From positions 42,416 to 106,415 of the forward strand of contig JBBCGY010000001.1 of the NCBI GenBank assembly GCA_037200005.1: a DNA stretch of 64,000 nucleotides. Direction: 5' to 3'. The translations under genes and the position numbers were made by a program. The notes under the pieces are model-generated. The model saw nothing but the letters and a program-made list of their open reading frames with translations, had not been told where the DNA came from and ran no database searches. Within the stretch, counting starts at the first letter, position 1. The number at the start of each line of letters is the position of its first letter. Origin of the DNA: Alphaproteobacteria bacterium. Its GTDB lineage: Bacteria; Pseudomonadota; Alphaproteobacteria; UBA9219; RFNS01. Positions 2,201 to 22,700 of the stretch are shown here, piece after piece.

Positions 2201-2331
2201 GTAGTAACGGAGAGGACGACATCCCCGCAGGACGCTCGTCCTGCGGGGATTAATCGGAAAATATCGAACGAATGCCCTATGGCGCAATCCAGAGGCCGCC
2301 ATTATAATGCGCGGAAACTAAGGGATAGCAT

Positions 2332-3892: not shown

Positions 3893-4380
3893 CGCTCAAC
3901 CACAAATACATCAAACAGATATTGATTTCCTTGCGGGACAATCCAGCTCCCAGCATGGACAGTTATGATCTGGCAAAAATTTGTGGCGTTGATATGAACC
4001 ATATTGATGAATTGGCGTTTGGTAAGTTTGTGACCCAACTGCGCCTGCTAAAGGATATGGCATGCATAGACTGTCCCGTGGACAATCTCGGCTTTAGCCA
4101 GAACATCAATCGCCACTGGATAATTTGTCGCACCACCTATCGGCTCTCCAGCCAGGGGCACAGTTTTCTGGACACAGAAAACAAAAATACCCTGTTCAAT
4201 AAGGGAAAGGCGTTCTTCTTTTCAGCCTTTACGGAAGCTGGAAAGCGTTTTCTGATTCAGGCAATAACGGCAATTTTTATTGTTGTGCTGGCTACCGTTG
4301 CCGCAAACGCTGGTCTTTTCAAAATTTCGAGTTCGCATGGCCTAGCTAATCTCAAAAATCCAAAAGAGCGAGGGCTATGA
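3889..4380 (+). CDS. hypothetical protein with C-terminal transmembrane helix, inserted between hsdM and hsdS
   Basis: 163 aa; ATGA overlap with the hsdM stop; AT-rich codon usage; C-terminal hydrophobic segment [23 protein letters not shown]; its stop overlaps the hsdS start. Confidence 0.45.
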
Positions 4381-5696
4381 TGTCTCTTTCGGAATGGCAA
4401 ATATTATCATTTAAAGAAGCTGGTGTTCAGTTGATTGATTGCGATCACAAAACACCCCCGGCATCTTCTTATGGGTATCCATATGTTACGATCCCTCAAA
4501 TCAAAAATGGGCGCATAGATGTGTCTGAAGCAAGGCGGATTACCGCAGAACATTTCAAAGAGTGGACAAGGAAGGCCAATCCAAAGCCCTTTGACGTTGT
4601 CTTATCTCGTAGATGCAACCCAGGAGAAACTGCCCATGTCCCTGCGGGGCTAGAGTTCGCTCTTGGACAAAATCTCGTTTTGTTGCGTGCAAATGGTGAA
4701 AAGGTATTTCCGCGATATTTACGATGGCTTACGCGGGGAGTGTTATGGTGGGAACAGATATCAAAGTTTATTAATGTGGGCGCCGTTTTCGATAGTTTGA
4801 GATGTGCGGACGTTCCAAATTTTCAATTTCCAATACCAGCACTGCATGAACAAAAAGCAATTGCTTCAATATTGACCGCACTGGACGATAAGATCGAACT
4901 GAACCGCCGGATGAATGCGAACCTGGAGGCGATGGCGCGGGCGGTGTTCAAAAGTTGGTTTGTCGATTTCGACCCCGTCCGCGCCAAAATGGCAGGCCGC
5001 CAACCCTTCGGTATGAGCGCGGCTACCGCTGCCTTGTTCCCCTCGCGCCTCGCCCCCTCCGAACTCGGCGATATTCCGGAGGGGTGGTCGGTCGATCAAA
5101 TCGGGAACGCGGTCACCGCCGTTGGCGGCAGCACCCCCAGCACCGAAAATCTAGAATATTGGACTGATGGGCAGTATGCCTGGGTAACGCCAAAAGACCT
5201 CTCTGCACTGAAATCGCCTGTTTTGTTCACAACGGAACGCAGGATAACAGATGCAGGAATCCGTGTTATCAGTTCCGGACTTCTGCCGTCGGGTACTGTT
5301 TTGATGTCTTCCCGTGCGCCAATCGGCTATATCGCAATCGCCGAAACGTCCGTTGCCATCAATCAAGGCTTCATAGCCATCGTTTGTGACAAAGAGCTTC
5401 CCAATTTATACGTCTGGCAATGGCTGCACGCCAATCTTGACATGATCAAAAGCCATGCAAACGGCTCAACCTTTCAGGAAATCAGCAAAGGCAGTTTCCG
5501 GCCTCTCCCCTGCATCATTCCATCAGCAAAGGTTCTCGAAAAATTTCAGGCAATCGTTTTGCCTATCTGGCAAAAACTCGTTGCGAATGAAAAAGAGTGT
5601 CTGGGGCTAGAAAAAACGCGCGACTACCTTCTTCCCAAACTAATCTCCGGCGACATCCGCATCCGCGACGCCGAGAAATTTATGGAGGCTGCATAA
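4377..5696 (+). CDS. hsdS: type I restriction-modification specificity subunit S (two target-recognition domains)
   Basis: Central conserved 'LHEQKAIASILTALDDKIELNRRMNANLEAMARAVFKSWFVDFDPV' and C-terminal 'LPKLISGDIRI' repeats typical of HsdS; intact 439-aa ORF. Confidence 0.9.
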   Translation: MMSLSEWQILSFKEAGVQLIDCDHKTPPASSYGYPYVTIPQIKNGRIDVSEARRITAEHFKEWTRKANPKPFDVVLSRRCNPGETAHVPAGLEFALGQNLVLLRANGEKVFPRYLRWLTRGVLWWEQISKFINVGAVFDSLRCADVPNFQFPIPALHEQKAIASILTALDDKIELNRRMNANLEAMARAVFKSWFVDFDPVRAKMAGRQPFGMSAATAALFPSRLAPSELGDIPEGWSVDQIGNAVTAVGGSTPSTENLEYWTDGQYAWVTPKDLSALKSPVLFTTERRITDAGIRVISSGLLPSGTVLMSSRAPIGYIAIAETSVAINQGFIAIVCDKELPNLYVWQWLHANLDMIKSHANGSTFQEISKGSFRPLPCIIPSAKVLEKFQAIVLPIWQKLVANEKECLGLEKTRDYLLPKLISGDIRIRDAEKFMEAA

Positions 5697-7150
5697 TGAA
5701 TCGCTGGGTAAATTCGTTCCAGAACCATCCTTTCCAAAAGCCATGGAAAGATATTGTGGAGCTTTCAGAAAAGATTGCTCTTCAAGATGAGACTGTCGCA
5801 ACTGACGTCCAAGAGCTTGCGCGTCTAAAAAAGGTTATAACCTATGTTGGCCAGTTAATAGGTGCAGCTGATCCGGAATTGATTCCATTAAGCATATGGA
5901 GTTCTTTTCAGGACCAGGCCACGCAGTGTGCAGATCAAATCAATCAGTACAACAGCAATAAGAACATTACTCACCTCAGCAACGCTAATAGCAATCTAGA
6001 TAATTTATTGACATATGTTCGCCCTTATGTGGTTTCTGCAGAGGGGGCGGCTCAGGCGGCAATGTCTGCGTTCATAGTGTATTCCGACACCATCAATACA
6101 CAGACCGATCTGATACAATCAAAAACCCAAGCCTCTGTTAACGGTACGCAGGCGAACAAAGAAAAGTCTGATGAAATATACAAAGAAATAGAGCAGTCAA
6201 AGCACAACATTCAACAATTGGAACAAAAATTTTTGATCGGCGATAGCAATGAGAAGAGCCTCCAGGAAAGAATGCAGATTCTTCTTGGGGAAGCCCAGGA
6301 GTGGAATAAAATAATTGGTGAGTTTCACAAACGGCTGACAAGCGGCAATGAACAAGAAAGCGCAATTTCGCTACAAATCGAAGAAGCAAAAAATAAAGCT
6401 ACTAAGGATAAGGAGGCTATAGAAAGTGCCCTTCAATTATCTGAAAATTTAATCAAAGACCTCAAAGAGTTTTATGAGCGAGTTTTTGGCAAAGAAGGCA
6501 GTGACGGAAACGTCATGGTCGGTCTAAAGCAAGAATTGGATAACCGCATTAAAGAGCTTGATAATTTTAAAATTAATCAAGGAACAGCCTACAATACCTT
6601 ATTTCAAAAAATTGAATCTCTACTGCCCGGAGCAACAAGCACTGGTCTTGCCAGTGCGTATAGAGAATTAAGAGACTCTTTTGCTGCGCCCATCAATATC
6701 TATACGCTAGTGTTTTGCTTCACCCTAGCAGTGATGTTTTTTGTTGGCTTGTGGGGTGTTGACTTCGGTGATGATGTGGGATTGAACAAGATGCTCGGCA
6801 GTCTCTATCACAAACTCCCACTTTTACTGCCCATCCTGTGGCTGGCAATTTTTGCTTCCAGACGAAGAAGCGAAAGTCAAAGGTTGCAACAAGAATATGC
6901 CCATAAAGAGGCGCTCGCAAAATCATTTCAAAGCTTCAAAAAACAAATTGATGCATTGCAGGAGAAGGACGAGGTCCTTACCAAGAAACTCCTGGATGCT
7001 ATGATCGGTGCCGTGTCCCATAATGCATCACAAACACTGGATGGAAAACATGGAGATAAAATTCCAACGCAAGAACTTCTAGAGGGAGTTATCAAGAAAT
7101 TTCCTGCGCAAAGCTTTTTTGAAAAATTAGTCGATAAAATCCTTAAATAG
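5696..7150 (+). CDS. coiled-coil protein with two C-terminal-proximal transmembrane helices, unknown function (candidate defence/abortive-infection effector)
   Basis: 484 aa from an ATG overlapping the hsdS stop (TAATG). N-terminal half is long Q/E/K-rich heptad-like stretches; TM helices 'INIYTLVFCFTLAVMFFVGLWGV' and 'LPLLLPILWLAIFAS'; AT-rich relative to flanks. Confidence 0.6.
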   Translation: MNRWVNSFQNHPFQKPWKDIVELSEKIALQDETVATDVQELARLKKVITYVGQLIGAADPELIPLSIWSSFQDQATQCADQINQYNSNKNITHLSNANSNLDNLLTYVRPYVVSAEGAAQAAMSAFIVYSDTINTQTDLIQSKTQASVNGTQANKEKSDEIYKEIEQSKHNIQQLEQKFLIGDSNEKSLQERMQILLGEAQEWNKIIGEFHKRLTSGNEQESAISLQIEEAKNKATKDKEAIESALQLSENLIKDLKEFYERVFGKEGSDGNVMVGLKQELDNRIKELDNFKINQGTAYNTLFQKIESLLPGATSTGLASAYRELRDSFAAPINIYTLVFCFTLAVMFFVGLWGVDFGDDVGLNKMLGSLYHKLPLLLPILWLAIFASRRRSESQRLQQEYAHKEALAKSFQSFKKQIDALQEKDEVLTKKLLDAMIGAVSHNASQTLDGKHGDKIPTQELLEGVIKKFPAQSFFEKLVDKILK

Positions 7151-7233
7151 GGAACAATGTGAATGGTCTGTTAGGGGCAAAAAACTCGTCACATCCAACT
7201 TATCAAGTACGTTCCTCGGAAAGAGCTACTCAC

Positions 7234-8319
7234 ATGACCTTTGACCGCAACACACCCTACAACGATCTTCCGCTTTTGCCACCGGCGCAGATCGACCTGG
7301 AAACAAAGCCTATTCTCAAAAAGGCGATCACGGCGAATATCGCGCTTGCCAAGCTGTTCGACGCGGGAAAGTTGATTCCCAATCAGGCGCTTCTGGTTCA
7401 GGCGATTGGGTTGCAGGAAGCCAAGCTGTCCAGTGAAATCGAGAATATCGTCACGACCAATGACGATCTTTACCGCGCTTTCGCGGATGAGGGCGTGCAT
7501 TCCAGCCCCGCAGCCAAAGAGGTTCTGTTTTACAAGGACGCGCTCTGGAAAGGCTATAACGCGATCAAACTGGAAAAGCGCCCGCTCTCCACGCGCCTTT
7601 TTGAAGATACGTTCCGCATTATCAAGCAATCCTCTGACGGCATCCGGCGTTTGCCGGGCACGAAATTATCGAACCCGGCAGGCGAGATTATCTACACGCC
7701 GCCCGAAGGCGAAAATCTTTTGCGTGACAAGCTCTCCAATCTCGAAAAATTTCTTTACGCCGAAGACGGGCTTGATCCTTTGATCAAAATGGCCGTCATG
7801 CACTATCAATTCGAGGCTATTCATCCCTTCACCGACGGCAATGGGCGCACGGGGCGCATTCTCAATCTTTTATATTTGATCGAGTGCGGGTTGCTGGAGA
7901 TTCCGGTTTTGTATCTATCCCGCTACATCATCGAACACAAAACGGATTATTATCTGGGACTGCGCGGCGTAACCGAGGGGCAAAATTGGGAATCGTGGAT
8001 TCTCTATATTCTCGATGCGATTGAAGTGACGGCGCAGATGACCAGAGATCGGATTCTTCGCATTCATTCTTTAATGGACAAGACGGCGGAGGCGGTCAAA
8101 GCCCAGGCTCCCAAAATCTATTCCAAAGACCTTATTGAGGTGATTTTCCGCCAACCCTACTGTAAAATTCGCTTTTTGGAGGAGGCAGGGATTGCCCAAA
8201 GGCAGACCGCCTCCACTTATCTCTCCAAATTAGAGGCTTTGGGTATTTTGGAGTCCGTAAAGGCTGGACGCGAGAAATATTATATTAATCCGGCATTCTT
8301 TAACCTTTTGGCAGAATGA
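7234..8319 (+). CDS. Fic family protein (AMPylase-type Fic, class II with N-terminal inhibitory motif, C-terminal wHTH)
   Basis: Canonical Fic motif HPFTDGNGRTGR; N-terminal 'MTFDRNTPYNDLPLLPP' typical of the Fic N-terminal domain; 'SSEIEN' fits the (S/T)xxxE(G/N) inhibitory motif; start taken at an internal Met of ORF 7159-8319. Confidence 0.85.
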   Translation: MTFDRNTPYNDLPLLPPAQIDLETKPILKKAITANIALAKLFDAGKLIPNQALLVQAIGLQEAKLSSEIENIVTTNDDLYRAFADEGVHSSPAAKEVLFYKDALWKGYNAIKLEKRPLSTRLFEDTFRIIKQSSDGIRRLPGTKLSNPAGEIIYTPPEGENLLRDKLSNLEKFLYAEDGLDPLIKMAVMHYQFEAIHPFTDGNGRTGRILNLLYLIECGLLEIPVLYLSRYIIEHKTDYYLGLRGVTEGQNWESWILYILDAIEVTAQMTRDRILRIHSLMDKTAEAVKAQAPKIYSKDLIEVIFRQPYCKIRFLEEAGIAQRQTASTYLSKLEALGILESVKAGREKYYINPAFFNLLAE

Positions 8320-8503: not shown

Positions 8504-11500
8504 ATGGTCGCTGACATTCAATACACCCAGCCGGAACCGAATTATGACGGATTCCGCGAAGCGCATGTTGAAGAAGCAACTTTCGATTGGCTCTCTGGGC
8601 TTGGCTGGACACTCGCGCATGGGCCGGATTTGGCACCGGAAGGCAAAGCCCCGGAGCGGGCCAGTTATGGCGACGTGCTGTTGTTGGGGCGGTTGAGGAC
8701 AGCCTTGGCCGCGATCAACCCGCAACTCCCCGCCGATGCGATTGACGACGTGGTGCGTAAGATTATCGCAGTCGAAATGCCGTCTTTGGTCGAAGAAAAC
8801 CGGCGCTTGCATAAACTGATGGTCGATGGCGTGGCTGTGCAATACATGCAGGCCGACGGCACGATCAAAAACGACATCGCGTGGCTGATCGACTGGGAAA
8901 ACAAAAAGAACGATTGGCTGGCCGTCAATCAATTCACGGTCATCGAAGAACGCAACAATCGCCGCCCCGACGTGGTGATGTTTATCAACGGTTTGCCCCT
9001 TGCCGTTATTGAATTGAAGAACGCGGGAGACGAAAACGCGACAATCGAAGGCGCGTTCCGCCAGACGCAAGCTTACAAGCAATTGATCCCTTCTCTGTTT
9101 CGCACGAACGGCATACTGATTATTTCCGACGGACTGAAAGCCCGCATCGGCAGCCTGACCGCAGATTATGAGCGTTTCATGCCATGGCGCACGGTGGATG
9201 GGGCCGGTGTCGCGGCCAAAGGAACGCCCGAATTACACACAATGATTCACGGCGTTTTTGAGCAAGGGCGTTTTCTGGAGTTATTGCGCCGGTTCACCGT
9301 GTTTCAAAGCAACGGCAAAGATATTTTCAAAATCGTAGCAGGATATCACCAGTTCCACGCCGTAAAGCTCGCCGTTGCCAGCACCATCGACGCAACGGCC
9401 AGTGAAGGAAATCGCAAAGTCGGCGTCATCTGGCATACGCAAGGATCGGGCAAAAGCCTGTTGATGGCATTTTATGCGGGCAGCGTGATTGCCAATCCTG
9501 CGATGGCCAATCCGACTCTGGTTGTGCTGACCGACCGGAATGATCTGGACGACCAGCTTTTTTAACACTTTCAGCCTATCTCGTGATCTTATCCGCCAGA
9601 CGCCCGCGCAAGCGGGAGATCGCGATGAATTGCGGAAGCTTCTGGCGGTATCATCTGGCGGCGTTATCTTTACGACCATTCAAAAATTTCTGCCCGCTGA
9701 TAGTGAAAAAACTTTCCCGCTGTTGACTGACCGCAAGAATGTCATCGTCATCGCCGATGAAGCGCACCGCAGCCAATATGGCTTCAAGGCCAAGTTGGAT
9801 AAAAAGTCGGGCGAATTAGCTTATGGTTTTGCGAAACACCTGCGCGATGCGCTGCCGAATGCGTCCTTCATTGGCTTTACAGGAACGCCTATTGAGAAAG
9901 CAGATGTCAATACGCCCGCCGTATTCGGCGATTATATTGATGTCTATGATATTCAACGCGCGGTCGAAGACGGCGCGACGGTGCCAATCTATTACGAAAG
10001 CCGCCTAGCCAAACTCCAGCTTGACGAAGAGGAAGTCAAAAATCTTGATGCTGAGGTCGAAGAACTGACCGAAGACGAAGAATCCAGCGAGCGCGAGCGT
10101 AAGAAAAGCAAATGGTCGCGCGTTGAAGCCCTGTGGGAGCCGAAACACGCTTGGCTCAAGTAGCCGCCGATATTGTTCAGCATTTTGAGAACCGTATCAG
10201 CGCCTTAGACGGCAAAGGCATGACCGTATGCATGAGTCGCCGTATTTGCGTGGCGCTCTATAACGAGATTATTAAATTACGGCCCGCATGGCATTCAGAC
10301 GATGACGCGCAAGGCGCTATCAAGATTGTGATGACGGGCAATATCGCCAACGATCCGCCTGAATGGTTGAAACATACGGGCAGCAAGGCGCGCCGTGATT
10401 TCCTGGCAAAGCGGGCGCGCGACGCTAAAGACCCGCTAAAACTTGTTATCGTTCGTGATATGTGGCTTACGGGCTTTGATGCGCCCTGCATGCACACGAT
10501 GTATGTCGATAAGCCGATGCATGGTCATGGCTTGATGCAGGCCATTGCCCGTGTAAATCGCGTATTCCGCGACAAGCCAGGCGGCTTGATCGTTGATTAT
10601 ATCGGGATTGCCCATAATCTGAAACAAGCTCTCTCTATTTATTCCCCCGGCGACCGCGAAGAAGTCGGCATTGACGAGCAGCAAGCCGTCGCAGAGATGA
10701 TGCGCCGCTATGAAATCGTCCGGGATATGTTTTATGGATTCGATTATATGCGCGCGCTGCACGGCACACCGGCTGAACGCTTAGTGCTGATGGCCGAGGC
10801 TCTGGAGTGGATTCTCGATTTGCAGCAACGTGAAGCTGCAAAAGAACAGACCGAACAAGCCAGGAAAGAGGTGCGCCGCAAATTCTCAGACGCCGTTGTT
10901 GGCTTATCGCGCGCCTATGCGCTGGCCGCAACCTCGCCAGAAGCGGGGAAAATTCGTGATGAAGTCGGTTTCTTCCAGGCTATTCGTGCAGCCCTGGCAA
11001 AAAATGAGCCGGGCAAAGGTAGCACACAGGCGGAAATCGATGTGGCCGTCCAACAAATGGTCAGTCGTGCCGTGGTGTCAACGGAGATTGTCGATATTCT
11101 GGCGGCGGCAGGCATTAGAACCCCGGATATATCCATCCTCTCAGATGAATTTCTGGCAGAAATTCAAGGCATGAAGAAGCGTAACCTTGCATTGGAAGCC
11201 TTACAGAAACTCATCAATGGAGAAATAAAATCCCGCATCAAATCGAACGTGGTGCAATCTAAGAAATTCAGCGAACGACTGGAAGCCGCCGTCCGGCGCT
11301 ATCATAACAACGCTATAACTGCCGCGCAGCTTTTGGAGGAGCTGATTGCCATCGCAAAGGATATTAAAGCTGACCGCGAACGAGGAGAAGAACAAGGACT
11401 TAGCGAAGAGGAAATCGCTTTTTATGATGCTCTGGCTGAAAATGAAAGCGCATTGCAGTTGTTGGGCGATGAGAAATTACGAGTGATTGCTACTGAACTG

Positions 11501-11680
11501 GTTGTCTCCGTTCGCAATAATGTGTCTGTTGACTGGATGCACCGCGATAGCGCCCGCGCCAAGTTGCGCATCGAAGTCAAAAAGATTCTCAAGAAATATG
11601 GCTATCCGCCAGATTTACAGGATGCAGCGGTGCAACTGGTGTTGCAGCAGGCCGAAGTTTTGGCCCCACTCTGGGCATAA
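8504..11680 (+). pseudogene. hsdR: type I restriction enzyme R subunit (HsdR), disrupted by two frameshifts (~9555 and ~10140)
   Basis: Three consecutive ORFs (frames 2/3/2) cover an HsdR: N-terminal domain, DEAD-box helicase motifs 'HTQGSGKS', '[12 protein letters not shown]', 'FTGTP', C-terminal domain. First break is in a T6 run (ctttttt; dropping one T reads DDQLFNTF). Second is a 1-nt loss at 'ctgtggga' (restoring g gives [17 protein letters not shown]). Confidence 0.85.
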
Positions 11681-11772: not shown

Positions 11773-12903
11773 TCAAAGCGCCAGCCGGGGCCGGATTAGC
11801 GACAAAGGCCGGGCAGTGGAAAGCTGGAGGCCAACAGCTTCGTTTGGAACATTGGAAAAATCGGTAATAAGCGGCAGCATGGCGTTAGGGCCAAGGGCGC
11901 GTGGTGAGGCACCTAGTTCTTTAAGAGCGGAAACAATTTCCGGTTCATTTAGCGCATGAATGCGCATAAGGGGTTGCGTAGTGTCAGGAATCCATTTCCT
12001 GCGCGAGACTTCATCGCGGCCCGTCGAGATAAGTGCCGCGACCACGTCCTTGAGTTTGTCGCCTTTCGGCAGATTGCCGTTGCTGGTGATTTGAGCGCGG
12101 ACAATCGGCTCGCCCAGGAAGGTCGAAATGGCTTCCGTAAAACTGGCGGCGATTTTCTGATTGCCGTCCTCACTTTGCCAATTCGCCAGGAACACATTTG
12201 GCAAGCTGGAGTCTTTGCCGGGTTTCGCGGCGAAGTCCGCGAGCTGGATTGCAACTCGTGAGCGGCCCGTTTCAATGGGCGCATCGCCGATAAATTCCAG
12301 AACGGCGCTATCGTCCGGCGCTCCCATCGTCGCACCGAGTTTCTTGAAGATGCCGGTCATGGCCGCATTGCCGCCCGCATATTCGCCGACGCGGCCGCGC
12401 GAGACGAGGCCATAGGGCGAATAGCCTTGTTCGCGGCTGACGGATCGCCGGATTTTCTCGTAGATAAAATGCGAGCCAAGTCCAATGCCATTCGGGTATT
12501 CCGCGCTTTTTGTGCGATTACGGAATTCCTGGGATAGTTCCGGCGACACATAGGTATCTTCGCCATAGATAGCAGGATAATGGCGGAAATCCCGGCCATT
12601 GCGTTCCGTGAGAACGGTCGGAAACTCGATTGAGCCACCGGCGAGTTTGGGGCTGCAATTTTCCCACTCCACGATGGCGAAATAAGCCTGAATTTTATTT
12701 TTCTTGATGGCCTCGATAACTTTGCCGAATTTGGCGTTATCAGCGGACGCTCCATGCGTCACGGCTTCACTTTCGACGATTCTATAAAGAATCTCATCAA
12801 GCGCCATATGATGAACGACGTCCGTACCGTTCATGCGCACGATGCTGGCTTTGGCGTTTCCCGGCAGCAGACCGGGCATATTATCGAGCGCAACGGAAGA
12901 CAT
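11773..12903 (-). CDS. hypothetical protein, family A (paralog of 24000-25298)
   Basis: 376 aa; shares blocks with the 432-aa protein at 24000 (KLAGGSIEFPTV/KLAGAAIELPTV, HYPAIYGEDT, YPNGIGLGS/YPNGLGLGT, KIAASFTEAISTF, PIVR.Q.TSNGNLP.GD, MRIHAL.EPEIV.ALK.LGA.PR.LGP); immediately downstream of the HTH regulator gene (2-nt gap). Confidence 0.6.
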   Translation of the reverse strand: MSSVALDNMPGLLPGNAKASIVRMNGTDVVHHMALDEILYRIVESEAVTHGASADNAKFGKVIEAIKKNKIQAYFAIVEWENCSPKLAGGSIEFPTVLTERNGRDFRHYPAIYGEDTYVSPELSQEFRNRTKSAEYPNGIGLGSHFIYEKIRRSVSREQGYSPYGLVSRGRVGEYAGGNAAMTGIFKKLGATMGAPDDSAVLEFIGDAPIETGRSRVAIQLADFAAKPGKDSSLPNVFLANWQSEDGNQKIAASFTEAISTFLGEPIVRAQITSNGNLPKGDKLKDVVAALISTGRDEVSRRKWIPDTTQPLMRIHALNEPEIVSALKELGASPRALGPNAMLPLITDFSNVPNEAVGLQLSTARPLSLIRPRLAL

Positions 12904-12905
12904 GA

Positions 12906-13556
12906 TTATATTTTCCCCTTGTCGTCGGGGATCGAAGCATTTTCCCAGAATGATTCAAATTGCTCGACATATCTTTCGGCCAAGGGCTTGGAGTGTATCG
13001 AAACGACTTCGACATTATGATCGCTGCGATGCACCGCCTGGGCGATATAGTCATTATAGACGTAATAGGGAATGAGGATTTTCGTCGTCTTATCCAGCCA
13101 GCGATATTCGCAATAGCTGGCGGAGAAATTATAGTCGCCATCCAGGATAAGAACGCGGGCGTCAAGATTCGGAAGCTTGCTCATTCTTTCCATATGCTCG
13201 GTCGCATAATCTTGCGCATAGGAAAGGGTCTTGCCGTCGCTGGAATTAAACTGGCGAATGCGTCCACCGTCTTTCAGCGTTTCGTATATATGATCGAGGA
13301 ATTGTCGGTATCCGGCTTTGCCCGAAAAAACCCTGACTTGGTTTCTCCGCATCCGAACGCCCTCGTCATCCAGGAATTCGACGCCGTGCCGGTCGAAAGC
13401 ATTGGTTATGCTGGCGATGGTCTTCTCATGCGGTTGTACCGTATCGGCCTCGATTTTGCTCACGGTCACGCGGGTAAGCCCGGCCTCCCTAGCCAAGTCT
13501 TCCGCTTTCCATTCCAGTAAGCTGCGCGCTGCGCGAATTTGACGCCCGGTAATCAT
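12906..13556 (-). CDS. XRE-family HTH transcriptional regulator with C-terminal domain of unknown function
   Basis: N-terminal 'RQIRAARSLLEWKAEDLAREAGLTRVTVSKIE' is a typical Cro/C1 HTH; ~150-aa C-terminal domain unassigned. Confidence 0.7.
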   Translation of the reverse strand: MITGRQIRAARSLLEWKAEDLAREAGLTRVTVSKIEADTVQPHEKTIASITNAFDRHGVEFLDDEGVRMRRNQVRVFSGKAGYRQFLDHIYETLKDGGRIRQFNSSDGKTLSYAQDYATEHMERMSKLPNLDARVLILDGDYNFSASYCEYRWLDKTTKILIPYYVYNDYIAQAVHRSDHNVEVVSIHSKPLAERYVEQFESFWENASIPDDKGKI

Positions 13557-13817
13557 AAAGTTAGCACTAGCATATGGTTTAGTTAAAAATAGATAACAAT
13601 CGAGATAACTAAAATTGGCAATAACATATTAATATTTGTAAAAACATGCCCTGTCAATTCAGAAACATTAGTTTCATGTAAAATTTACTGATACCATAAG
13701 TATATTCTTCTTGATTCCCAGTCGGCTTTGCATTTATGTTCCCAAATATTGGTAATGCCTAATGGTTGAAATTAGCTCGATTAAGCCATTTAAAGCGATT
13801 TTCAAGGGGAATTTCAG

Positions 13818-13990
13818 ATGACCAATTCATTTAACGCTTATGTCATGCGCCAGGGCGAACCGGCCATTACCGCCATCATCGAAAATTGGGAAAGGCTTGT
13901 CGGCTTGCGGGCCGAGGCCGAAACGCCGCTTGAGCAGCGCTGGGCGGCGATGATGCATGGTTATGAGCCACAGGCAATGGCAGTCGCATG
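13818..13990 (+). CDS. small hypothetical ORF (57 aa), first gene of a small-gene operon
   Basis: ATG after 'aggggaatttcag' RBS-like sequence; stop overlaps the next ORF start (ATGA); not in the supplied ORF track (<60 aa). Confidence 0.3.
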
Positions 13991-14278
13991 AGCCGGAAAG
14001 CCGAAAAACCTTTCAGCCCGGTTGACGAGATGCAGCTTTCTCAGCCGATGGGCAATCGAACCGCCGAACATTTCCGCGATGCCCTGGATGATTTGGAGCA
14101 TGAGGCGACCGCGCAGGACGCAAAAATAAAGCAATTGCGCCAAGCTATTCTGCAACGCGCACAAGAACTCGACACTACCGTTTGCCAATCCTGGCTGGAT
14201 TCAGAAATCGAAAAAGCGGACCACCTCGCGTTGGAAGCGCGGCTGGAAAAACTCATCAAGTTCCTATCGGAAAAATGA
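13988..14278 (+). CDS. hypothetical protein (96 aa, predicted helical)
   Basis: ORF translationally coupled to flanking small ORFs. Confidence 0.4.
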   Translation: MSRKAEKPFSPVDEMQLSQPMGNRTAEHFRDALDDLEHEATAQDAKIKQLRQAILQRAQELDTTVCQSWLDSEIEKADHLALEARLEKLIKFLSEK

Positions 14279-14493
14279 TGATGGCGAATTTTCATGAACG
14301 CCCCATGACATATAAAAAGCTCGTCGCTCGTTACGGCCATGACATGGCTTTCGATTTACTCGTCACTATCGAGAGCCTTGCGAAGATTAAGCACGACATC
14401 ATCGAGATCAACGAAGAAATTCGTCTGCAACGCGCGCTGGAAGTTTTGGACGAGGCGGAATTCGGACAGGCAGATAAAGGCGGGGTCAAATGA
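14275..14493 (+). CDS. hypothetical protein (72 aa)
   Basis: ATG cluster 'atgatgatgg' overlapping the previous stop; stop overlaps the LuxR-type gene start. Confidence 0.35.
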   Translation: MMMANFHERPMTYKKLVARYGHDMAFDLLVTIESLAKIKHDIIEINEEIRLQRALEVLDEAEFGQADKGGVK

Positions 14494-14738
14494 TTTCCGG
14501 TAATAACATACCCAATAAAAAGCTTGCGCCGCGTGAAATCGAAGTCATGACCTTAACGGCGCGTGGCAAGACGACCACCGAAATTGCAATGCTTCTCTCG
14601 ATTGCCGAGGATACAGTTAAGACTCACATCAAACGATCCTGCCAGAAATTGAACGCGGCCAATAAAACACACGCCGTTGCTCTCGTTATGGCTCGCGGCA
14701 TAATAGAATGTTCCTGTTGTCACCCGAAAGGGGGATAG
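14490..14738 (+). CDS. LuxR/GerE-type HTH DNA-binding protein (stand-alone)
   Basis: 'LAPREIEVMTLTARGKTTTEIAMLLSIAEDTVKTHIKRSCQKLNAANKTHAV' matches the GerE/LuxR C-terminal HTH consensus. Confidence 0.6.
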   Translation: MISGNNIPNKKLAPREIEVMTLTARGKTTTEIAMLLSIAEDTVKTHIKRSCQKLNAANKTHAVALVMARGIIECSCCHPKGG

Positions 14739-14820
14739 AACTGCATTTTTATTTGCGCTACATAGTTGCGGCGCATTGGCGATGAAGTTAGAGTAAATTT
14801 TCGCGAAGGGGAGAACGGCG

Positions 14821-17800
14821 ATGGTGGCACCTGCGAAGAAATTTCACGAAGCGAACGGCGAACTCACCAATGAGGCAGGGGCAACGCGACCGCCGCTCTC
14901 GAGGAACAGCCTCTGGCGGACACTGCGCCCCGGGATCTCGGTGGGAGTAAGCCTCGCGGCAGTCGTCGCTTGCGAAAGCGGCGAACCCAACGCTTCAAAT
15001 GACAACATCGTTTCGATTTCCCAAGCGATAGGCTCTGCGACAATCTATAGCTTGCCTACCAATGTTTTGATGCCCAATGCCATCAATAATCAAAATCTCA
15101 TTGTGGGCCAGGGTCTGCCTTCGATCTATGATGCCAACACGGGAACATTTAGTAGCCTTGAAGTAAACCAGCCTTCGGGGGCGGTCACTTCCTATGCAAT
15201 TAGCAATGCCGGTCACGTTGTCGGCAATTCATTCAATGTTGGGCCGGTTTCCAATTCGGCGTTCATTTCACAGGGCGGACATTTGTCCGATCTATACGCC
15301 GGCAACAACAACGGGGTGACCAGCGTCGCTTACGGCGTCAACAATTATGGCCAAGTCGTCGGCACGATGCCGGTGACGGTCAACGATGCGAACAATAGTC
15401 CACATCCTTTCACGCATGCGTTCTCGTGGCAGGGCAGCGTTACAGACCTTACACCGAACTACTATGGAAATTCAGCCGCCTATGGCATCAACGATGCTGG
15501 GCAGATCGTGGGAACGATAGGAACTGCGGGGGTCAAGTGGCAGGGCGGATCGTCAAGCACGCTGCCGAGCGGCACCAGCACGCCCGCCATGATCAACAAT
15601 GTCGGTCAGATCGTCGGGACATATAGTTCAGGCGGTTCGTCGCACGCTTTCCTTGTGCAGAGCGGCACCCTGACCGATCTCGGAGCCATACAGGGAAGCA
15701 CACCTGTGAGGATCAACAACAAAGGACAAGTTACGGGCGGCTTCTACAACACGGGTGCCGGACAATATTACCCGAGCGTCTGGCAGAATGGCGTCGTGGT
15801 TACGATTCCCACTCTGTCGGGCATTCCCGCAGGCTGGTCTATCACGTCGATAAACGGCATCAATGACAGCGGAACCGTCGTAGGGCAAGGCACGCTTTCG
15901 GGTTCTTCACGGGGTTTTTACCTAACTTCGCCGCAGCTTCTGAACTACGCCATTGCCGGAAAGCCCTACGATCCGAAAGCGAATGGTGGTGAGGATTCGG
16001 CGTCAACCCCGACAGACGATCTATGTGGAACTCATGGCATGTGTGTGCCCAACGCGCAATTGCTGTCGGCCAGCTTGAATTTGAACGATACGCCGATTGG
16101 GTATCAGCCGCCCAAAGGGCCACCAGCCTATATCCGGCTTACATATAATCATCGTGACAGTGTCGCGCCCAGCAGCACTTCCTCGCATGTTGGGCCAAAC
16201 TGGACTCTGAATGTCATTTCTTACATTCAGGATGATCCGGCCAGCCCGGGCCAGAGCGTCACGCGCAACGTGGCGGGCGGCGGTATCGTCGACTACACTT
16301 TTGAGGCAGGGCAGTTCAATACCACCACGGGTGCATTCGGGCCGGAGAAGCAAACCGGGGCGATCTTGAAACGGACTCCCGCGACAGGGTTCAGCGCCAG
16401 TGCTTCCTATGAGCTTTCCTTTCCCGATGGGGCCAAGCAAATATTCTCCTACCCGGATGGAAGCTTCAATTATCCGCGCCGCGCATTCCTGACGGATATC
16501 GTTGATGCCTCAGGCCAGGGCCTGCATTTTGGCTACAATTATCTTCAAGGAACTTTCGGCGCGATCAATTGCACGCCGGGATGTCCGCAACTGCAATCAG
16601 TTTCTGATGCTAATTTCCGTGCAACAAACTTCGTCTACGGTGACGCATCTAATGTCTTGCGCGTGACGCGGATTAATGACCCGTTCGGGCGTCACGCCGA
16701 TTTAGCTTATGATGGCAGCGGACGGCTTTCGTCAATCACGGATGTGATCGGCATTCAATCGTCTTTCACCTATGACACCACCGACCCTACTTTCATCAAA
16801 AAGCTAACGACACCCTATGGCGATAGCAATTTCGTCTTTGGGCAAGATACGGCGACGGATCGTCGTTGGCTCACACTCTCCGATGCCGTGGGCAATACGG
16901 AAAAAGTGGAATACCGGGGCAGCAGCGCCAGCGGCATAGCGGCGTGCGACAAAAACACGAGCGATGCGTCGTGCAGTGTCTCGACCTCCGTGCCGACAGG
17001 CATGCCTAACGGCATCAATAACGCCGATCTCGACAAGCGCAACACCTTTGTCTGGAACAAATGGATGTATGCGAATGGCTATGGCAGCGATTACACGCAG
17101 GCGAATGTTACCCATTGGCTCAAGGACGGTGCGGGCAATCCCGTGGGGATTCCGGAAAGCGTCAAGCCGCTGTACGAATCCCGCATTTGGTATAATTATC
17201 CCGGCCAGAACGATCCTAGCACCCCAGGAACCCTGTCTGTGCCGAGGGCGACGGGCCGCGTGATCACCGATCCGCTTTACGGGCAAGCGCCGCAGAATCA
17301 GGTTTACCAAAGTCAATATAACAGCCTCGGCAAGCCCACCTTGACCGTCGATCCCTACAAGGTTTCAGGCAACAACAATGAAGGCCGAACTACACGCATG
17401 ACCTATGATGCCTCCGGCGTCGATCTTTTGACGGTGGAACAGAAAACCGGCAGCGGAACGCCGGGGACATGGGCGACGATTGCTTCCTACGTCTATACCG
17501 ATCCGACAGAACAGCCCACATCGATCCACAAACCGATCCGCTATACCGACGCGGCGGGGCAAACTTATAAATTCAAATACAATGGCGACGGCCAATTGAT
17601 CTATGCCGCCAATCCCTACAACGATACGACGTATAATGAATATCATCCGTCCGGCAAGCTCCTGCGGACGACCATGCCTGTGCCGAGCGTAAACTGGAAT
17701 ACCATCGATTATGGAACCGATATTAACGGCGCGCCGACGGGGGCGAGCAACAGCAGCGCCCTAAGGGACACCGCCATTACCTACGACTCCGCCGATCGTC

Positions 17801-20202
17801 CGTATGACGTGACCGACCGGATGGGTCTGGTGAAGCGTTTCGGCTACGACAATCTCGACCGGGTAACGCGGGTGGATTACGCCCCCGGCACGGCGGGCAC
17901 GACCTATGAGACGAACACCTATACCAACCTCGACCTGACATCGCACCGCGACCGGCTTGGCCGGGTTAGCACCGATGTTTACACGGCGAACCGGCAGCTG
18001 TGGCTGAGCTTCAATGCTTCGGGAACGCGGCGGGGCTTCACCTATTACCCGAACGGCGCGCTACAAGGCTACTACGACGAGAACGACCATCCTACAATCT
18101 ACGGCATCGACGGCCAGGGACGCGCCAACGCCGTCGTCTATCCCAATGGCAACCAGACGAATTACTACTACGATGATGGCGGGCGGATGCGCACCATTGT
18201 CGATCTCGACGGCTCGAACCAGCGCTGGCGGAACATTAAATATAACGTCGATAATAGCGTCCATATCCGCGACTATACCAACCCGGCAAATCCGTCCGAT
18301 CCCGTGGTTCTGGCGACGACAACCGCGACCTTCACCTACGATCCATGGTTCCCCGGACAAATGACTTCAATGGCCGATGCCAGCGGAACGACCAACTATA
18401 CATACAAAACCGTAGGCACCGTCGGCGCCTTACAACTCGCGACCGAAAATCCGCCGACGGTAAGCGGCGACGCGGATAAAATCACCTACACCTATGACCA
18501 GAAGGGACGGCTCGCCTCGCGCCAGATCGGTATCGGCACGGCGAGCGTGCTGCCGCAGGAAAGCTGGGTGCGCGACACCTATGGCCGCATTAACAGGCAC
18601 ATCATTCCCGACGGCAACCTGTTCTATTACGACTTCAACGGCGCGAGCAATCAGGTGACAATGCGCGCGTTTCGCAATCAGGCGCTGACGGAGATCGACC
18701 CGCTGAATACGCGCACGATGATGAGCTACGACACGGCGGCGAACGACTCGCGGCTGCTGACGATCAACAACCCGCCCTACGACAACAGCGCGCCCGGCGC
18801 GCGGGACTTCACCCTCAATTGGGGATCGTCGCCCGCCAATCCGTACGTTCCGGCGACGATCACCGACTCCGCTGGAGGCCCCGGCGGGGCGTGGGGACAG
18901 CGGGTGTGGACGATGGGCTATGACGCGCGCGACCGGCTGACCTCGGCGGTCGCCGCCGACCGCAGCTATTCGTTTACCCTGGACGCGCCGGGCAACGCGA
19001 CGAGCTTCACCAGCACGCACTATCCGAGCGGCGGGCTGTATAGCTTTAACTCGACCTACAACACGTCGAACCAGATGACGGTGGCGAACGGCAACGCGCT
19101 GATCTACGACCCCTACGGCAACCTCGTCACCCACACGAACTACCGCAGCTTCAAGTACGACGCCGAGAACCGCCTGATCGAGGTCGACTTCCCCGCCGCG
19201 CCCGCCGACAAGGTTGAGATGCAATATGACGGTCTTGGTCGCCGCACGCAGATCAAATCCACCATCGGCGGCGTCGTCACGACGCGGAACCTGCAATGGT
19301 GCGCCCAGACGACCTCGCCGCCGTTCCAGGGCGCGGCGGAAGAGATATGCGTCGAGCGCGACGCATCGGGCGGCATGCAGCGCATGGTCTATCCCGAGGG
19401 CGAATATCGCGCCAACGGCGGCCGGTACTTTTATGAACGCGACCAGACCGGCAACATCCGCGACGTGATGAAGATGGCGGCGGGATTGACGACCGCCGCG
19501 CGCGATAGCTCCTTCAACTACACGCCTTATGGCGGCGTCGACGGCAAAGACGGCACTGCCGAGCCGCTGCAGCAGTTCGCGGGACTGCTGTATGAGAAGA
19601 ACAGCAACCTGTTCCTCTCCCGCACCCGCGCCTATGCCCCATGGATCGGCAGATGGCTCCAGCGCGATCCGATTGGGCAGAATGGGGGGAGTAATGTTTA
19701 TGAGTATGCGGGGGCGAGTCCGATTAACAAGATTGATCCGAGCGGGTTGCAGGGGGTGCGACCTGGGTTAATAGAAACGATGCGACCTACAATAGGAGTG
19801 CCACCAGCAGCGGGGATCAACGAGGGGGCAGGAAATTACGCCGATTATCTTCAAGAAAATGGAGAAATGATGGGTGATCTAGCCACCCTTTATAGGGCCA
19901 CTAGCGCGGCGGTTGCCGGTGCGAGCAACCAATCAATGCGAGAGGATATTGAAAAAGCAAAAGTATGCACATCGTTTGGAAACAGCATGTCGGCGGATCA
20001 GCCGTTATGGTGCGGGCCTGGCGGATGCGCGGATAGCGTCAGGCAGCAGTGGCTGGATGCGACCGGCGGCTTAGTGTATCCACAAATCATCGAGTCTTTC
20101 AAAAAGAGGTTTGAACCGGCTCCCTCGCGGCTTGTGTCGACGCCGATGCGTGGCAATGACTTCGGTAATTCGGTTTTATTCCCTAATGTGGGCCCAGGTT
20201 AG
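14821..20202 (+). CDS. RHS/YD-repeat toxin with N-terminal HAF-type extracellular repeats and a C-terminal variable toxin domain
   Basis: 1793 aa. N-terminal repeated 'GINDAGQIVG' and 'HAFLVQSGTLTDLG' motifs (HAF-repeat-like); many YD-type repeats (YDxxGRL, YTYD, YDALGR). RHS core end motif 'YEYAGASPINKIDPSGL' is followed by a ~150-aa Cys-containing CT domain. Confidence 0.9.
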   Translation: MVAPAKKFHEANGELTNEAGATRPPLSRNSLWRTLRPGISVGVSLAAVVACESGEPNASNDNIVSISQAIGSATIYSLPTNVLMPNAINNQNLIVGQGLPSIYDANTGTFSSLEVNQPSGAVTSYAISNAGHVVGNSFNVGPVSNSAFISQGGHLSDLYAGNNNGVTSVAYGVNNYGQVVGTMPVTVNDANNSPHPFTHAFSWQGSVTDLTPNYYGNSAAYGINDAGQIVGTIGTAGVKWQGGSSSTLPSGTSTPAMINNVGQIVGTYSSGGSSHAFLVQSGTLTDLGAIQGSTPVRINNKGQVTGGFYNTGAGQYYPSVWQNGVVVTIPTLSGIPAGWSITSINGINDSGTVVGQGTLSGSSRGFYLTSPQLLNYAIAGKPYDPKANGGEDSASTPTDDLCGTHGMCVPNAQLLSASLNLNDTPIGYQPPKGPPAYIRLTYNHRDSVAPSSTSSHVGPNWTLNVISYIQDDPASPGQSVTRNVAGGGIVDYTFEAGQFNTTTGAFGPEKQTGAILKRTPATGFSASASYELSFPDGAKQIFSYPDGSFNYPRRAFLTDIVDASGQGLHFGYNYLQGTFGAINCTPGCPQLQSVSDANFRATNFVYGDASNVLRVTRINDPFGRHADLAYDGSGRLSSITDVIGIQSSFTYDTTDPTFIKKLTTPYGDSNFVFGQDTATDRRWLTLSDAVGNTEKVEYRGSSASGIAACDKNTSDASCSVSTSVPTGMPNGINNADLDKRNTFVWNKWMYANGYGSDYTQANVTHWLKDGAGNPVGIPESVKPLYESRIWYNYPGQNDPSTPGTLSVPRATGRVITDPLYGQAPQNQVYQSQYNSLGKPTLTVDPYKVSGNNNEGRTTRMTYDASGVDLLTVEQKTGSGTPGTWATIASYVYTDPTEQPTSIHKPIRYTDAAGQTYKFKYNGDGQLIYAANPYNDTTYNEYHPSGKLLRTTMPVPSVNWNTIDYGTDINGAPTGASNSSALRDTAITYDSADRPYDVTDRMGLVKRFGYDNLDRVTRVDYAPGTAGTTYETNTYTNLDLTSHRDRLGRVSTDVYTANRQLWLSFNASGTRRGFTYYPNGALQGYYDENDHPTIYGIDGQGRANAVVYPNGNQTNYYYDDGGRMRTIVDLDGSNQRWRNIKYNVDNSVHIRDYTNPANPSDPVVLATTTATFTYDPWFPGQMTSMADASGTTNYTYKTVGTVGALQLATENPPTVSGDADKITYTYDQKGRLASRQIGIGTASVLPQESWVRDTYGRINRHIIPDGNLFYYDFNGASNQVTMRAFRNQALTEIDPLNTRTMMSYDTAANDSRLLTINNPPYDNSAPGARDFTLNWGSSPANPYVPATITDSAGGPGGAWGQRVWTMGYDARDRLTSAVAADRSYSFTLDAPGNATSFTSTHYPSGGLYSFNSTYNTSNQMTVANGNALIYDPYGNLVTHTNYRSFKYDAENRLIEVDFPAAPADKVEMQYDGLGRRTQIKSTIGGVVTTRNLQWCAQTTSPPFQGAAEEICVERDASGGMQRMVYPEGEYRANGGRYFYERDQTGNIRDVMKMAAGLTTAARDSSFNYTPYGGVDGKDGTAEPLQQFAGLLYEKNSNLFLSRTRAYAPWIGRWLQRDPIGQNGGSNVYEYAGASPINKIDPSGLQGVRPGLIETMRPTIGVPPAAGINEGAGNYADYLQENGEMMGDLATLYRATSAAVAGASNQSMREDIEKAKVCTSFGNSMSADQPLWCGPGGCADSVRQQWLDATGGLVYPQIIESFKKRFEPAPSRLVSTPMRGNDFGNSVLFPNVGPG
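18992..19752. repeat. direct repeat copy 1 (3' part of RHS core), ~99% identical to 21503-22263
   Basis: identical antisense ORFs 19140-19385 and 21651-21896 in the track; aligned offset 2511 nt; the few mismatches give G->D and K->R differences. Confidence 0.85.
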
Positions 20203-20206
20203 TCCT

Positions 20207-21478
20207 ATGAAAAAGTTTACTCTATTGCTTGTCGCGCTTTGTAGTCTGACAATGTTACCGGCTCATGCCGCTGACCAAGACTCCAAACCACCCGTCATTG
20301 ATATTCCTGCCACGCGAAAAGAGGCGGAGTCTGGAGATGCTCGGGCTCAATATAATCTGGGCATAGCTTATCTCAACGGTTACGGGGTGAAGAAAAATAA
20401 AGATGAAGCTATTGAATGGATTTACAAAGCAGGGAAGAACAATGATGCCCTCGCAATATATTTCTTGGGCAGCGCATATCATGATGGCGACCTTTTGCCA
20501 CAAGACTACGCCAAGGCTATGAAGTGGTATCACAGGTCCGATGAATTATACGGCAGTCCCCTTGCGCAGAATATGCTTGGCGTGATGCACGAAAACGGTC
20601 AGGGGGCTCCACAGAATTATGAAGAAGCGGCTAGGTGGTATCGCAAAGCTGCCGAGAATATTTACGCACCGGCTCAATCCCATCTTGGATTCCTATACTA
20701 CGCTGGACGCGGCGTTCCTAAGGACGATCAAAAGGCTCTATATTGGCTTAAGAAAGCAGCCATACAAAACGATGCGCCAGCAAAGCTTATGCTAGGCATT
20801 ATGCACTATAAAGGCGAAGGAGTGGAAAAGAATTACGTTAAAGCTGTCAGCTATTTTCGCGAAGCCGCAGACGTCGGAATATCGATAGCTGAACGATATT
20901 TGGGAAATATGTATTACCACGGCGAAGGCGTTTCCAAGGATGAAGCCCAGGCTGTGTCTTGGTGGCGCAAAGCCGCCGAACAAGGGGATAGGGAGTCGGA
21001 AAAGATCATAGGTGGTATGTACTATTATGGCACAGGAGTGTCGAAGGATTTTTCCCAAGCCGTTTTATGGTGGCAAAAAGCTGCGGAAAAGGGTGATGTC
21101 GATGCTCAATGCAACTTGGCGAAAGCTTACTATCATGGAGAAGGTATAGGAAAAGATGAAACTCAAGCTGTGTTATGGTGGCGGAGGGCCGCGGCACAAG
21201 GACATGGAGAATCCCTCCTTTATTTAGGACAAGCGTATTTTAGTAGCATAGGCGTATCGCAAGATGATGTGCAGGCTTATATATGGCTAAGCTTGGCGGC
21301 TACAAGAAATCAGTCGTCAGCGGTTGCAACACTCACGGAACTCGAAAAGTCCATGACGCCGGAACAAATCGCTGAAGCCAGAAAACGCGTGGCAGAATGG
21401 AAACCCAAGCCTGAGCCAAAGCCTGCCCCAATAGGGCCAATACCCGAAATTCTAAAAGAAGTCCGTGAAGATTTATGA
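20207..21478 (+). CDS. Sel1-repeat (SLR/TPR-like) periplasmic protein, probable cognate immunity protein for the RHS CT toxin
   Basis: Starts 5 nt after the RHS stop; signal peptide MKKFTLLLVALCSLTMLPAHA; ~9 Sel1 repeats (AQYNLGIAYLNGYGVKKN..., AxxWYRKAAE...); start taken at an internal Met of ORF 20111-21478. Confidence 0.75.
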   Translation: MKKFTLLLVALCSLTMLPAHAADQDSKPPVIDIPATRKEAESGDARAQYNLGIAYLNGYGVKKNKDEAIEWIYKAGKNNDALAIYFLGSAYHDGDLLPQDYAKAMKWYHRSDELYGSPLAQNMLGVMHENGQGAPQNYEEAARWYRKAAENIYAPAQSHLGFLYYAGRGVPKDDQKALYWLKKAAIQNDAPAKLMLGIMHYKGEGVEKNYVKAVSYFREAADVGISIAERYLGNMYYHGEGVSKDEAQAVSWWRKAAEQGDRESEKIIGGMYYYGTGVSKDFSQAVLWWQKAAEKGDVDAQCNLAKAYYHGEGIGKDETQAVLWWRRAAAQGHGESLLYLGQAYFSSIGVSQDDVQAYIWLSLAATRNQSSAVATLTELEKSMTPEQIAEARKRVAEWKPKPEPKPAPIGPIPEILKEVREDL

Positions 21479-22668: not shown

Positions 22669-22700
22669 AGAATATGAGTGGAATTGAGGGAGTTAATGCA

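Follow-up and report, generated by a model that had tools for sequence, protein, structure and literature searches.

Gene pairs coding for a GNAT-fold protein and for a DNA-binding protein of the XRE or RHH type (GNAT-Xre and GNAT-RHH, respectively) have been recognised as toxin–antitoxin (TA)-like modules, the function of GNAT-Xre pairs being left between resistance and toxin–antitoxin action (Makarova, Wolf and Koonin 2009, PMC2701414). Later work established GNAT-RHH pairs as toxins acetylating aminoacyl-tRNA; no experimental characterisation of the GNAT-Xre class, flagged in 2009, turned up in the literature searches. In the tandem GNATs characterised, one half only is catalytic (PMC10936415). 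The element considered here is a two-gene module from a 64,000-nucleotide stretch of alphaproteobacterial DNA (assembly GCA_037200005.1, contig JBBCGY010000001.1), hereafter called the window. The module, HTH-X, comprises a gene of a helix-turn-helix (HTH) regulator and a gene of a 376-aa protein (X1, a member of the family X), whose stand-alone paralog X2 is found in the same window (Table 1). The closest described kind is the GNAT-Xre TA-like pair of Makarova et al. (2009; PMC2701414). Tentatively, and with somewhat less than even confidence, HTH-X is taken to be a repressor-controlled toxin-like acyltransferase, i.e., a GNAT-Xre TA-like cargo module stabilising or defending its island.

Like the GNAT-Xre modules, HTH-X is a mobile two-gene module with an XRE-family HTH gene tightly linked to a GNAT-fold gene. 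Unlike them, it features as the partner a tandem GNAT of 376–432 aa undetected by GNAT sequence models, its regulator possesses an extra phospholipase D (PLD)-like domain devoid of the catalytic motif (pseudo-PLD), and such modules occur only on islands of uncultured Alphaproteobacteria. The TacAT, AtaRT, KacAT and ItaRT toxins are dimeric, Pfam-recognised single GNAT domains of ~160–180 aa, features lacking in HTH-X; their antitoxin is a small RHH-DUF1778 protein, whereas the partner in HTH-X combines an XRE HTH with a PLD-like domain. The literature searches brought up no earlier description of a defence system or of a tandem-GNAT module resembling HTH-X.

The association of the two genes is strongly conserved. 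Upstream regions of X homologs were inspected at 18 distinct loci (those outside the window bear L numbers), and in 16 of them a regulator homolog resides directly upstream on the same strand: X1 of the window, L001/2, L003, L004, L005/6, L009, L010, L011, L013, L014, L023, L024, L025, L029, L030 and L032. In L007/8, X is preceded by a mere remnant of the HTH gene (residues 119–204), and nothing of the kind precedes X2 of the window. Hence, the layout of an HTH regulator plus an effector, pointed out in the first-pass annotation of the window, recurs throughout the family, and the ORF list and codon positions likewise bear out the gene coordinates and the 2-nt gap reported there. The regulator stop codon occupies 12906–12908 and the X1 ATG is at 12903; the spacing is also +2 nt in L005, −1 nt in L032 and −4 nt in L029, and the regulator and X are probably translationally coupled. 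The pairing holds even at ~27% X identity (L029). The arrangement resembles that of type II TA modules: the genes are adjacent, co-oriented and tightly spaced, with the DNA-binding partner first.

Across the loci, the pairs are surrounded by genes of NikA and relaxase (often divergent from the pair), DUF736, ArdC, and tyrosine integrases or a serine recombinase, as well as type I restriction–modification (R-M) systems with Fic, RHS, Abi_2, reverse transcriptase and SLATT. L030 is a ~7 kb element between argG and rpmE harboring a serine recombinase, the HTH-X pair, three small ORFs and relaxase/NikA; judging from this gene content, the pair is the main cargo of the element. Overall, the carriers of HTH-X pairs are integrative mobilizable islands found in uncultured Alphaproteobacteria. 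A metabolic family in a conserved housekeeping context, named in the first-pass annotation as the outcome that would speak against its proposal, was not what the survey of homolog neighbourhoods revealed, since the neighbours are mobile-element and conflict genes.

Additional genes adjoin the pair in certain loci. In one subclade, a third gene coding for 129–151 aa overlaps or abuts the X stop codon (L010 7222–7611, L011 7218–7619, L013 7203–7658); it belongs to no family, its FliS-like matches are sub-threshold, and it is absent from the window. This gene could be an extra component of the module in the L010/L011/L013 subclade. In L005 (9214–10638) and L006 (1775–3199), HTH-X is directly followed by a gene of a 474-aa protein with PD-(D/E)XK/Cas4-like and RNase_H_2 domains, then by an integrase gene and by an Mrr-cat/DEAD helicase gene; the region represents a probable further defence cluster adjoining X.

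The AlphaFold2 (AF2) model of X1, built on 19 sequences, is characterised by a predicted local distance difference test score (pLDDT) of 88.6 and a predicted template modelling score (pTM) of 0.89. Its whole-chain Foldseek matches are two-GNAT-domain proteins, namely the B. anthracis Eis-like 3n7z (E 1e-7), Eis2 and N-myristoyltransferase (NMT), at probability 1.0; the template modelling (TM) scores of these matches are low (0.28–0.36; to Eis, 0.28–0.35). The GNAT core fold (β1-α1-α2-β2-β3-β4-α3-β5-α4-β6) is present in the model. The N-terminal half displays the order β1-α1-α2-β2-β3-β4-(inserted helix)-α3-β5-α4, with the extra helix between β4 and α3, and the C-terminal half represents a second unit, β2′-β3′-β4′-α3′-β5′-α4′-β6′, without the α1/α2 helices. 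The β5-α4 segment of the N half aligns weakly with β5′-α4′ of the C half, placing E174 opposite H316 (hhalign E 0.018), which fits an ancient duplication of the halves.

On the strength of this model, X1 and X2 appear to belong to a tandem-GNAT-fold family matched at the level of fold, not of sequence. At the sequence level, the Pfam, NCBIfam, PADLOC and PHROGs models gave no meaningful match to X1 or X2, and PDB searches with a single sequence and with a profile found no similarity to any characterised tandem GNAT. Hence, the earlier statement that the paralogs match no known family stands for the sequences and gives way at the level of the predicted fold. Like Eis, NMT, MshD and VipF, X holds two GNAT-like halves in one chain. 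Unlike Eis, it lacks the SCP domain and its C-terminus is variable, and unlike the characterised tandem GNATs in general, it occurs in a different genomic context, shows no sequence similarity to them and reaches TM-scores of only ~0.3–0.36. Judging from the predicted tandem-GNAT fold, X is most likely an acyl-CoA-dependent N-acyltransferase.

Conservation among 73 diverse members of the X family is focused on a limited set of residues. E174 and F238 are invariant; A47, G89, E115, D116, G264, R335 and G338 are conserved in at least 90% of the members, and G141-L-G143, H316 and W242 in ~80–86%. In the model of the N half, E115 and D116 (strand β4) and E174 (strand β5) seem to occupy the usual places of GNAT catalytic residues, accompanied by the G141-L-G143 loop before helix α3 and by N178..KxLGA. 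The GLG loop and N178..K-x-L-G-A are co-linear with motifs A/B of three classical GNATs from related loci, the hhalign match being weak (E 0.007, probability 5%). The motif A loop Q/RxxGxG/A is not clean: GLG (~80% conserved) precedes α3, and the extra helix parts it from β4. In the C half, the conserved elements include F238, W242, ASFT..ISTF.G, Q271-x-x-S-x-G276 (directly after β4′), H316, R335 and G338.

The two paralogs of the window are 44% identical over 411 columns (BLASTP, E 3e-119), close to the ~40% first estimated by eye, and all the blocks quoted then, i.e., HYPAIYGEDT, YPNG(I/L)GLG, PIVR.Q.TSNGNLP.GD and MRIHAL.EPEIV.ALK.LGA.PR.LGP, are common to both. The main difference is an insertion of ~56 residues in X2 (residues ~302–357), where X1 has 8 residues; as read directly from the sequence, a part of it duplicates the preceding helix (SSLLAAGHDEIRERKW vs AALLSAGRDEILSRRIG). 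X2 keeps every family-conserved residue.

A word-indexed search of 5.8 billion proteins returned 19 relatives of X, all hypothetical, and a profile search against 1.84 billion cluster representatives returned 150 clusters at E ≤0.001, 86 of them below 1e-30. By these figures, X is a genuine but rare, unannotated family. All seven genome loci with X from named organisms belong to metagenome-assembled genomes (MAGs) of uncultured Alphaproteobacteria, and a metagenome scan contributed six further loci. X is under strong purifying selection: in the comparison of L001 with L003, the ratio of nonsynonymous to synonymous substitution rates (dN/dS) is 0.068 at dS 0.86 for X and 0.12 for the HTH regulator. 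The copy number can be elevated, with two X genes in the window and two HTH-X pairs on contig JAQUHK010000002.1.

The regulator is 100% identical to P0020, an NCBI-annotated helix-turn-helix transcriptional regulator encoded on a 1.83-Mb contig of the Alphaproteobacteria MAG GCA_037975565.1. Pfam HTH_3 matches its residues 7–58 (E 1.4e-7), and ~150 further residues match no family. In PADLOC, the HTH is hit by Control_protein (E 7.4e-7) and by other generic HTH-domain models (RmrA, capH), and the domain resembles controller (C) proteins and Aca proteins. The AF2 model of the regulator has a pLDDT of 87.3, and the C-terminal domain, suspected from the outset to be sensor-like, proved to be a second domain with the PLD fold. 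The best PDB sequence match of its profile is the pseudo-PLD FAM83B (E 0.12); in this alignment, R152, L and P163 of the regulator fill the H, K and D positions. Among 54 regulator homologs, no conserved HxK of the catalytic HxK(x)4D was found in the C-terminal domain, its invariant histidines being H89 (HIY) and H121 (HME). Since the HKD motif is not present, the domain is a catalytically dead PLD-like one, presumably serving for sensing, oligomerisation/dimerisation or partner binding. An interpretation of the HTH-PLD protein and the transferase as an R-M-like pair with an active PLD nuclease was dropped for the same reason.

In terms of architecture, the regulator has two kinds of counterparts. 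The C proteins of R-M systems are single-domain proteins of ~80 aa controlling nucleases, whereas the regulator here adds a domain of ~150 aa and its partner is a predicted acyltransferase. Its dead PLD-like domain is shared with TrmB-type regulators; still, TrmB/TrmBL2 have a winged helix, not an XRE HTH, and are mainly regulators of archaeal sugar metabolism, and the Pfam TrmB model did not match the regulator. In the plasmid collection, tblastn with the regulator yielded two partial matches to Sulfitobacter plasmids only.

The regulator gene is preceded by an AT-rich intergenic region with a candidate near-palindromic operator, TCCCAAATATTGGTAA; a second, half-similar copy is situated closer to the gene. 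A block resembling ACCnAATATTGGT is common to the upstream regions of seven HTH-X loci (L023, L024, L025 and L009 among them); it has a single match in the window, at the candidate operator, against 0.05 matches expected. A candidate operator was also looked for upstream of X2 and not found, and the promoter/terminator scan performed no better than on shuffled sequence. On the far side of the intergenic region, an ORF of 57 aa diverges from the regulator gene; it is 38% identical over 52 aa (tblastn, E 3e-9) to the 55-aa ORF directly preceding HTH-X in L001, and small ORFs of 55–58 aa are situated in the corresponding position in L001, L003 and L004. Going by this similarity, it may be a conserved small island protein whose orientation to the HTH gene varies between loci.

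Under the interpretation of HTH-X as a repressor-controlled toxin-like acyltransferase, the regulator would repress the bicistronic operon from a palindromic operator located in the AT-rich stretch before its gene, the pseudo-PLD domain acting as its sensing, oligomerising or partner-binding part. X would transfer an acyl group from acyl-CoA held by one of its GNAT halves, most likely the complete N half with E115, D116, E174 and the GLG loop, and the other half would give the acceptor site its shape, in the way of Eis, N-myristoyltransferase and VipF. If X were not controlled, its target would be an essential macromolecule, either a protein or, as for GNAT toxins, an aminoacyl-tRNA; acylation of this target would arrest growth and so either stabilise the island or abort infection; the regulator would silence X and might neutralise it as well. 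This interpretation draws on the tight coupling of the genes, the expansion of paralogs and the position of the pair as the cargo of the minimal element L030, and also on the interchangeable effectors found behind one regulator family (see below) and on the conflict-gene neighbourhoods.

A number of observations weigh against it. Thus, X and the regulator are much larger than classical type II TA partners, and the DUF1778/RHH antitoxin domain of the known GNAT toxins is absent from the module. X2 is intact although no HTH gene or remnant precedes it (tblastn with five HTH variants retrieved in the window the copy next to X1 alone), and the X copy of L007, left with the HTH remnant, still keeps all conserved residues; both cases are mildly awkward for a lethal toxin strictly needing a partner in cis. 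Within the X1 clade, conservation is higher for the HTH (71% identity) than for X (43–48%), contrary to what is usual for antitoxins; in the long clade, the usual order is seen (37% vs 61%). The regulator family also has members that stand alone or precede RHS genes, a distribution more in line with a general regulator of the islands than with a dedicated antitoxin.

The biochemical side has its own difficulties. The binding of CoA and catalysis by X are predicted only, and the Q-x-x-S-x-G of the C half leaves either half as the possible catalytic one. The Pfam scan of the 73 members produced nothing above noise, the sole match being one member to Acetyltransf_1 (E 0.025), and PDB sequence searches with X, as a single protein and as a profile, returned noise alone (CdiA tRNase, E 0.3; Crov588, E 1.2). 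The median isoelectric point of the family is 6.9, i.e., near neutral, with no hint of tRNA binding. As regards the likeness to regulated defence or anti-defence modules suggested in the first-pass annotation, the layout and the island context are borne out; at the same time, none of the defence-system models of PADLOC-DB v2 matched X1 or X2, and tblastn found no X homologs in the phage and plasmid collections.

The regulator family outnumbers the X family (169 matches), and its paralogs are homologous over the full length, the PLD-like domain included. The genes behind these paralogs code for a Pfam-recognisable GNAT (L003, L021), a class I methyltransferase-like protein (L001) or a formyltransferase-like protein (L004); elsewhere, the partner is a 316-aa unknown protein (just outside the window, twice in the genome), an RHS gene or nothing obvious. 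In L021, a plain 148-aa GNAT stands behind the regulator homolog, with divergent upstream NikA/relaxase genes as in the X loci L010–L013. A broader possibility, regarded as doubtful, is that the XRE-HTH/pseudo-PLD protein serves promiscuously to regulate or neutralise interchangeable group-transfer enzymes, with X as a new acyltransferase toxin acting on a new target. The range of partners would then extend from tandem and plain GNATs to methyltransferase-like, formyltransferase-like and unknown-fold proteins, together making up a modular family of conflict systems not recognised before (toxin–antitoxin, abortive infection or anti-defence), carried in uncultured Alphaproteobacteria by integrative mobilizable elements.

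One of the regulator paralogs, P0084 (223 aa, 61% identical), is located ~800 nt to the left of the window (L015 6001–9575, contig JBBCBH010010965.1; also L016). It is followed by the genes of the 316-aa unknown-family protein, of an HTH_26 protein (141 aa) and of a 422-aa unknown; the 316-aa and 422-aa proteins were tested as relatives of X and turned out not to be related. The 3-kb segment with the P0084 pair is duplicated ~0.9 Mb away in the genome at 96.6% identity.

The function left open for GNAT-Xre pairs includes resistance. X might be a regulated detoxification or resistance enzyme, harmless to the host, that acylates a small-molecule toxin or antibiotic in the manner of Eis or of aminoglycoside or tabtoxin acetyltransferases, the pseudo-PLD domain sensing the compound and inducing the operon. 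This is unlikely, while not negligible: the TM-scores to Eis are low, as given above, no GNAT or Eis Pfam model matched above noise in the 73 members, and HTH-X makes up most of the cargo of a minimal mobilizable element and shares its slot with unrelated transferases. Besides, X is extremely rare and missing from plasmid collections, unlike typical resistance genes.

Acylation of a defence protein by a GNAT has a precedent in the anti-CRISPR protein AcrVA5. By analogy, X could assist the mobilizable element in anti-defence or establishment, being made early after transfer to acylate a defence protein of the recipient, with the HTH protein as an Aca-like or C-protein-like shut-off. The resemblance of the HTH domain to controller and Aca proteins agrees with such a role, as do the divergent position of the pair next to the NikA-relaxase operon in several loci and its proximity to ArdC in L004. 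Still, no relaxase gene lies near the X1 pair of the window, X is large for an Acr-type protein and has no matches in phage and plasmid collections, and the scenario presumes the direction of transfer (oriT) of the elements; overall, it is distinctly unlikely.

Certain other families with two GNAT-like domains use aminoacyl-tRNA. X, too, could do without acyl-CoA, either as a Fem/L,F-transferase-type aminoacyl-tRNA-dependent transferase or as a non-catalytic scaffold keeping the GNAT fold. The unclean Q/RxxGxG/A, the extra helix between β4 and the GLG loop, and the helical insertion of the long subfamily point in this direction; nevertheless, the possibility is rated as highly unlikely. No Fem-type protein was present among the structural matches listed, and the Fem-like version was rejected.

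The least probable of all, and hardly credible, is that X acts on a host as an effector secreted by an alphaproteobacterium that lives inside cells or in association with protists: tandem-GNAT effectors do exist, as exemplified by the Dot/Icm effector VipF of Legionella acetylating eIF3 (PMC10936415), a related MAG has DotI/IcmL adjoining an HTH homolog, and Sel1, Fic and RHS genes abound on the islands, but neither a secretion signal nor a linkage to a secretion system was found for X (no secretion-system genes were seen in the annotated part of the window), and effectors are not typically coupled so tightly to a repressor carried by a mobilizable element.

The window itself conforms to the accessory-region location proposed initially. 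Its G+C content is ~0.45–0.55 over positions 1 to ~27,000 and 0.58–0.66 beyond 32 kb, and the tyrosine integrase gene together with tRNA-Lys(UUU) marks the apparent right end of the low-G+C, horizontally acquired island (Table 1). The integrase gene is on the 5′ side of the same-strand tRNA-Lys, whereas islands integrated at tRNA genes usually have it past the 3′ end. The genes at 27361–31860, coding for EAL response regulators and a hybrid histidine kinase, have an intermediate G+C content of 0.52–0.58. A locus from the 1.83-Mb contig of GCA_037975565.1 matches window positions 1–5201 at 100% identity in reverse orientation.

Within the island, the X1 pair sits between hsdR and the RHS cluster, and X2, as noted earlier and confirmed by the gene coordinates, between the RHS/Sel1 cluster and the AlpA-like/integrase module. 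The array at 14490–23882 (+) looks like a typical one of RHS toxin, immunity and orphan genes: it starts immediately upstream of the RHS gene with an 82-aa LuxR/GerE-only protein and ends with a 122-aa probable membrane protein. In L001 and L005, the RHS gene is preceded by an HTH/pseudo-PLD paralog, not by LuxR. The island also holds a type I R-M system with an inserted Fic gene. Its hsdR is spread over three overlapping ORFs (8504–9565, 9540–10163 and 10133–11680, +) and hsdM over two pieces (HsdM_N 2332–2787 and N6_Mtase 2714–3892, +); these splits are frameshifts stemming from decay or from MAG assembly errors, and the NCBI record (L015) has matching split gene calls. Between hsdS and hsdR (5597–8319, +), there are genes of a 517-aa protein of no family and of a SoFic-like Fic protein (7159–8319). 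A similar order, HsdM-Fic-HsdS-(PD-(D/E)XK-like)-HsdR, adjoins the X homolog in L007, so Fic within type I R-M is recurrent on these islands.

Table 1. Features of the HTH-X module and its surroundings in the window
Feature	Position	Strand	Basis
X1, 376 aa, tandem-GNAT-fold protein, predicted acyl-CoA-dependent N-acyltransferase	11773-12903	-	ORF list, predicted structure
C-terminal GNAT-like half of X1, residues ~219-375	11779-12249	-	secondary structure, conservation
N-terminal complete GNAT domain of X1 (predicted), residues ~15-205	12289-12861	-	secondary structure, conservation
Regulator gene, 216 aa, XRE/C-protein-like HTH and PLD-like domain	12906-13556	-	ORF list
PLD-like domain of the regulator without HKD motif, residues ~70-210	12927-13349	-	
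HTH DNA-binding domain of the regulator, residues 1-66	13359-13556	-	
AT-rich intergenic region upstream of the regulator	13557-13817	.	sequence
Second, half-similar copy of the candidate operator	13631-13641	.	repeats D1 and I5
Candidate palindromic operator	13740-13755	.	repeats D1 and I5
57-aa ORF, divergent from the regulator	13818-13991	+	tblastn homology to the L001 small ORF
RHS protein, 1793 aa	14821-20202		
Sel1-repeat protein	20111-21478		
Orphan RHS-repeat fragment	21475-22668		
Second Sel1 protein	22674-23489		
X2, 432 aa, stand-alone X1 paralog	24000-25298	+	ORF list, alignment
X2 insertion, ~56 residues, also in the 'long' subfamily (~425-432 aa)	24903-25070	+	alignments
HTH_17 (AlpA-like)	25585-25776		
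Tyrosine integrase	25691-27031	+	Pfam Phage_integrase, E 6e-29
tRNA-Lys(UUU)	27112-27187	+	ARAGORN

If X were a resistance or metabolic enzyme, all that would be new is the fold assigned to an otherwise ordinary cargo gene of the island. If the toxin-like acyltransferase interpretation is true, a new and structurally distinct tandem-GNAT branch missed by sequence models would join the repertoire of acetyltransferase toxins and effectors, and the combination of an XRE HTH with a dead PLD domain would represent an unusual architecture that apparently brings diverse transferase genes carried on mobilizable islands under one type of control. HTH-X would then also open a way into the GNAT-Xre class and into the accessory gene pool of uncultured Alphaproteobacteria. 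The module would gain weight if the pattern of one regulator serving many transferases proved to be a new family of conflict systems.

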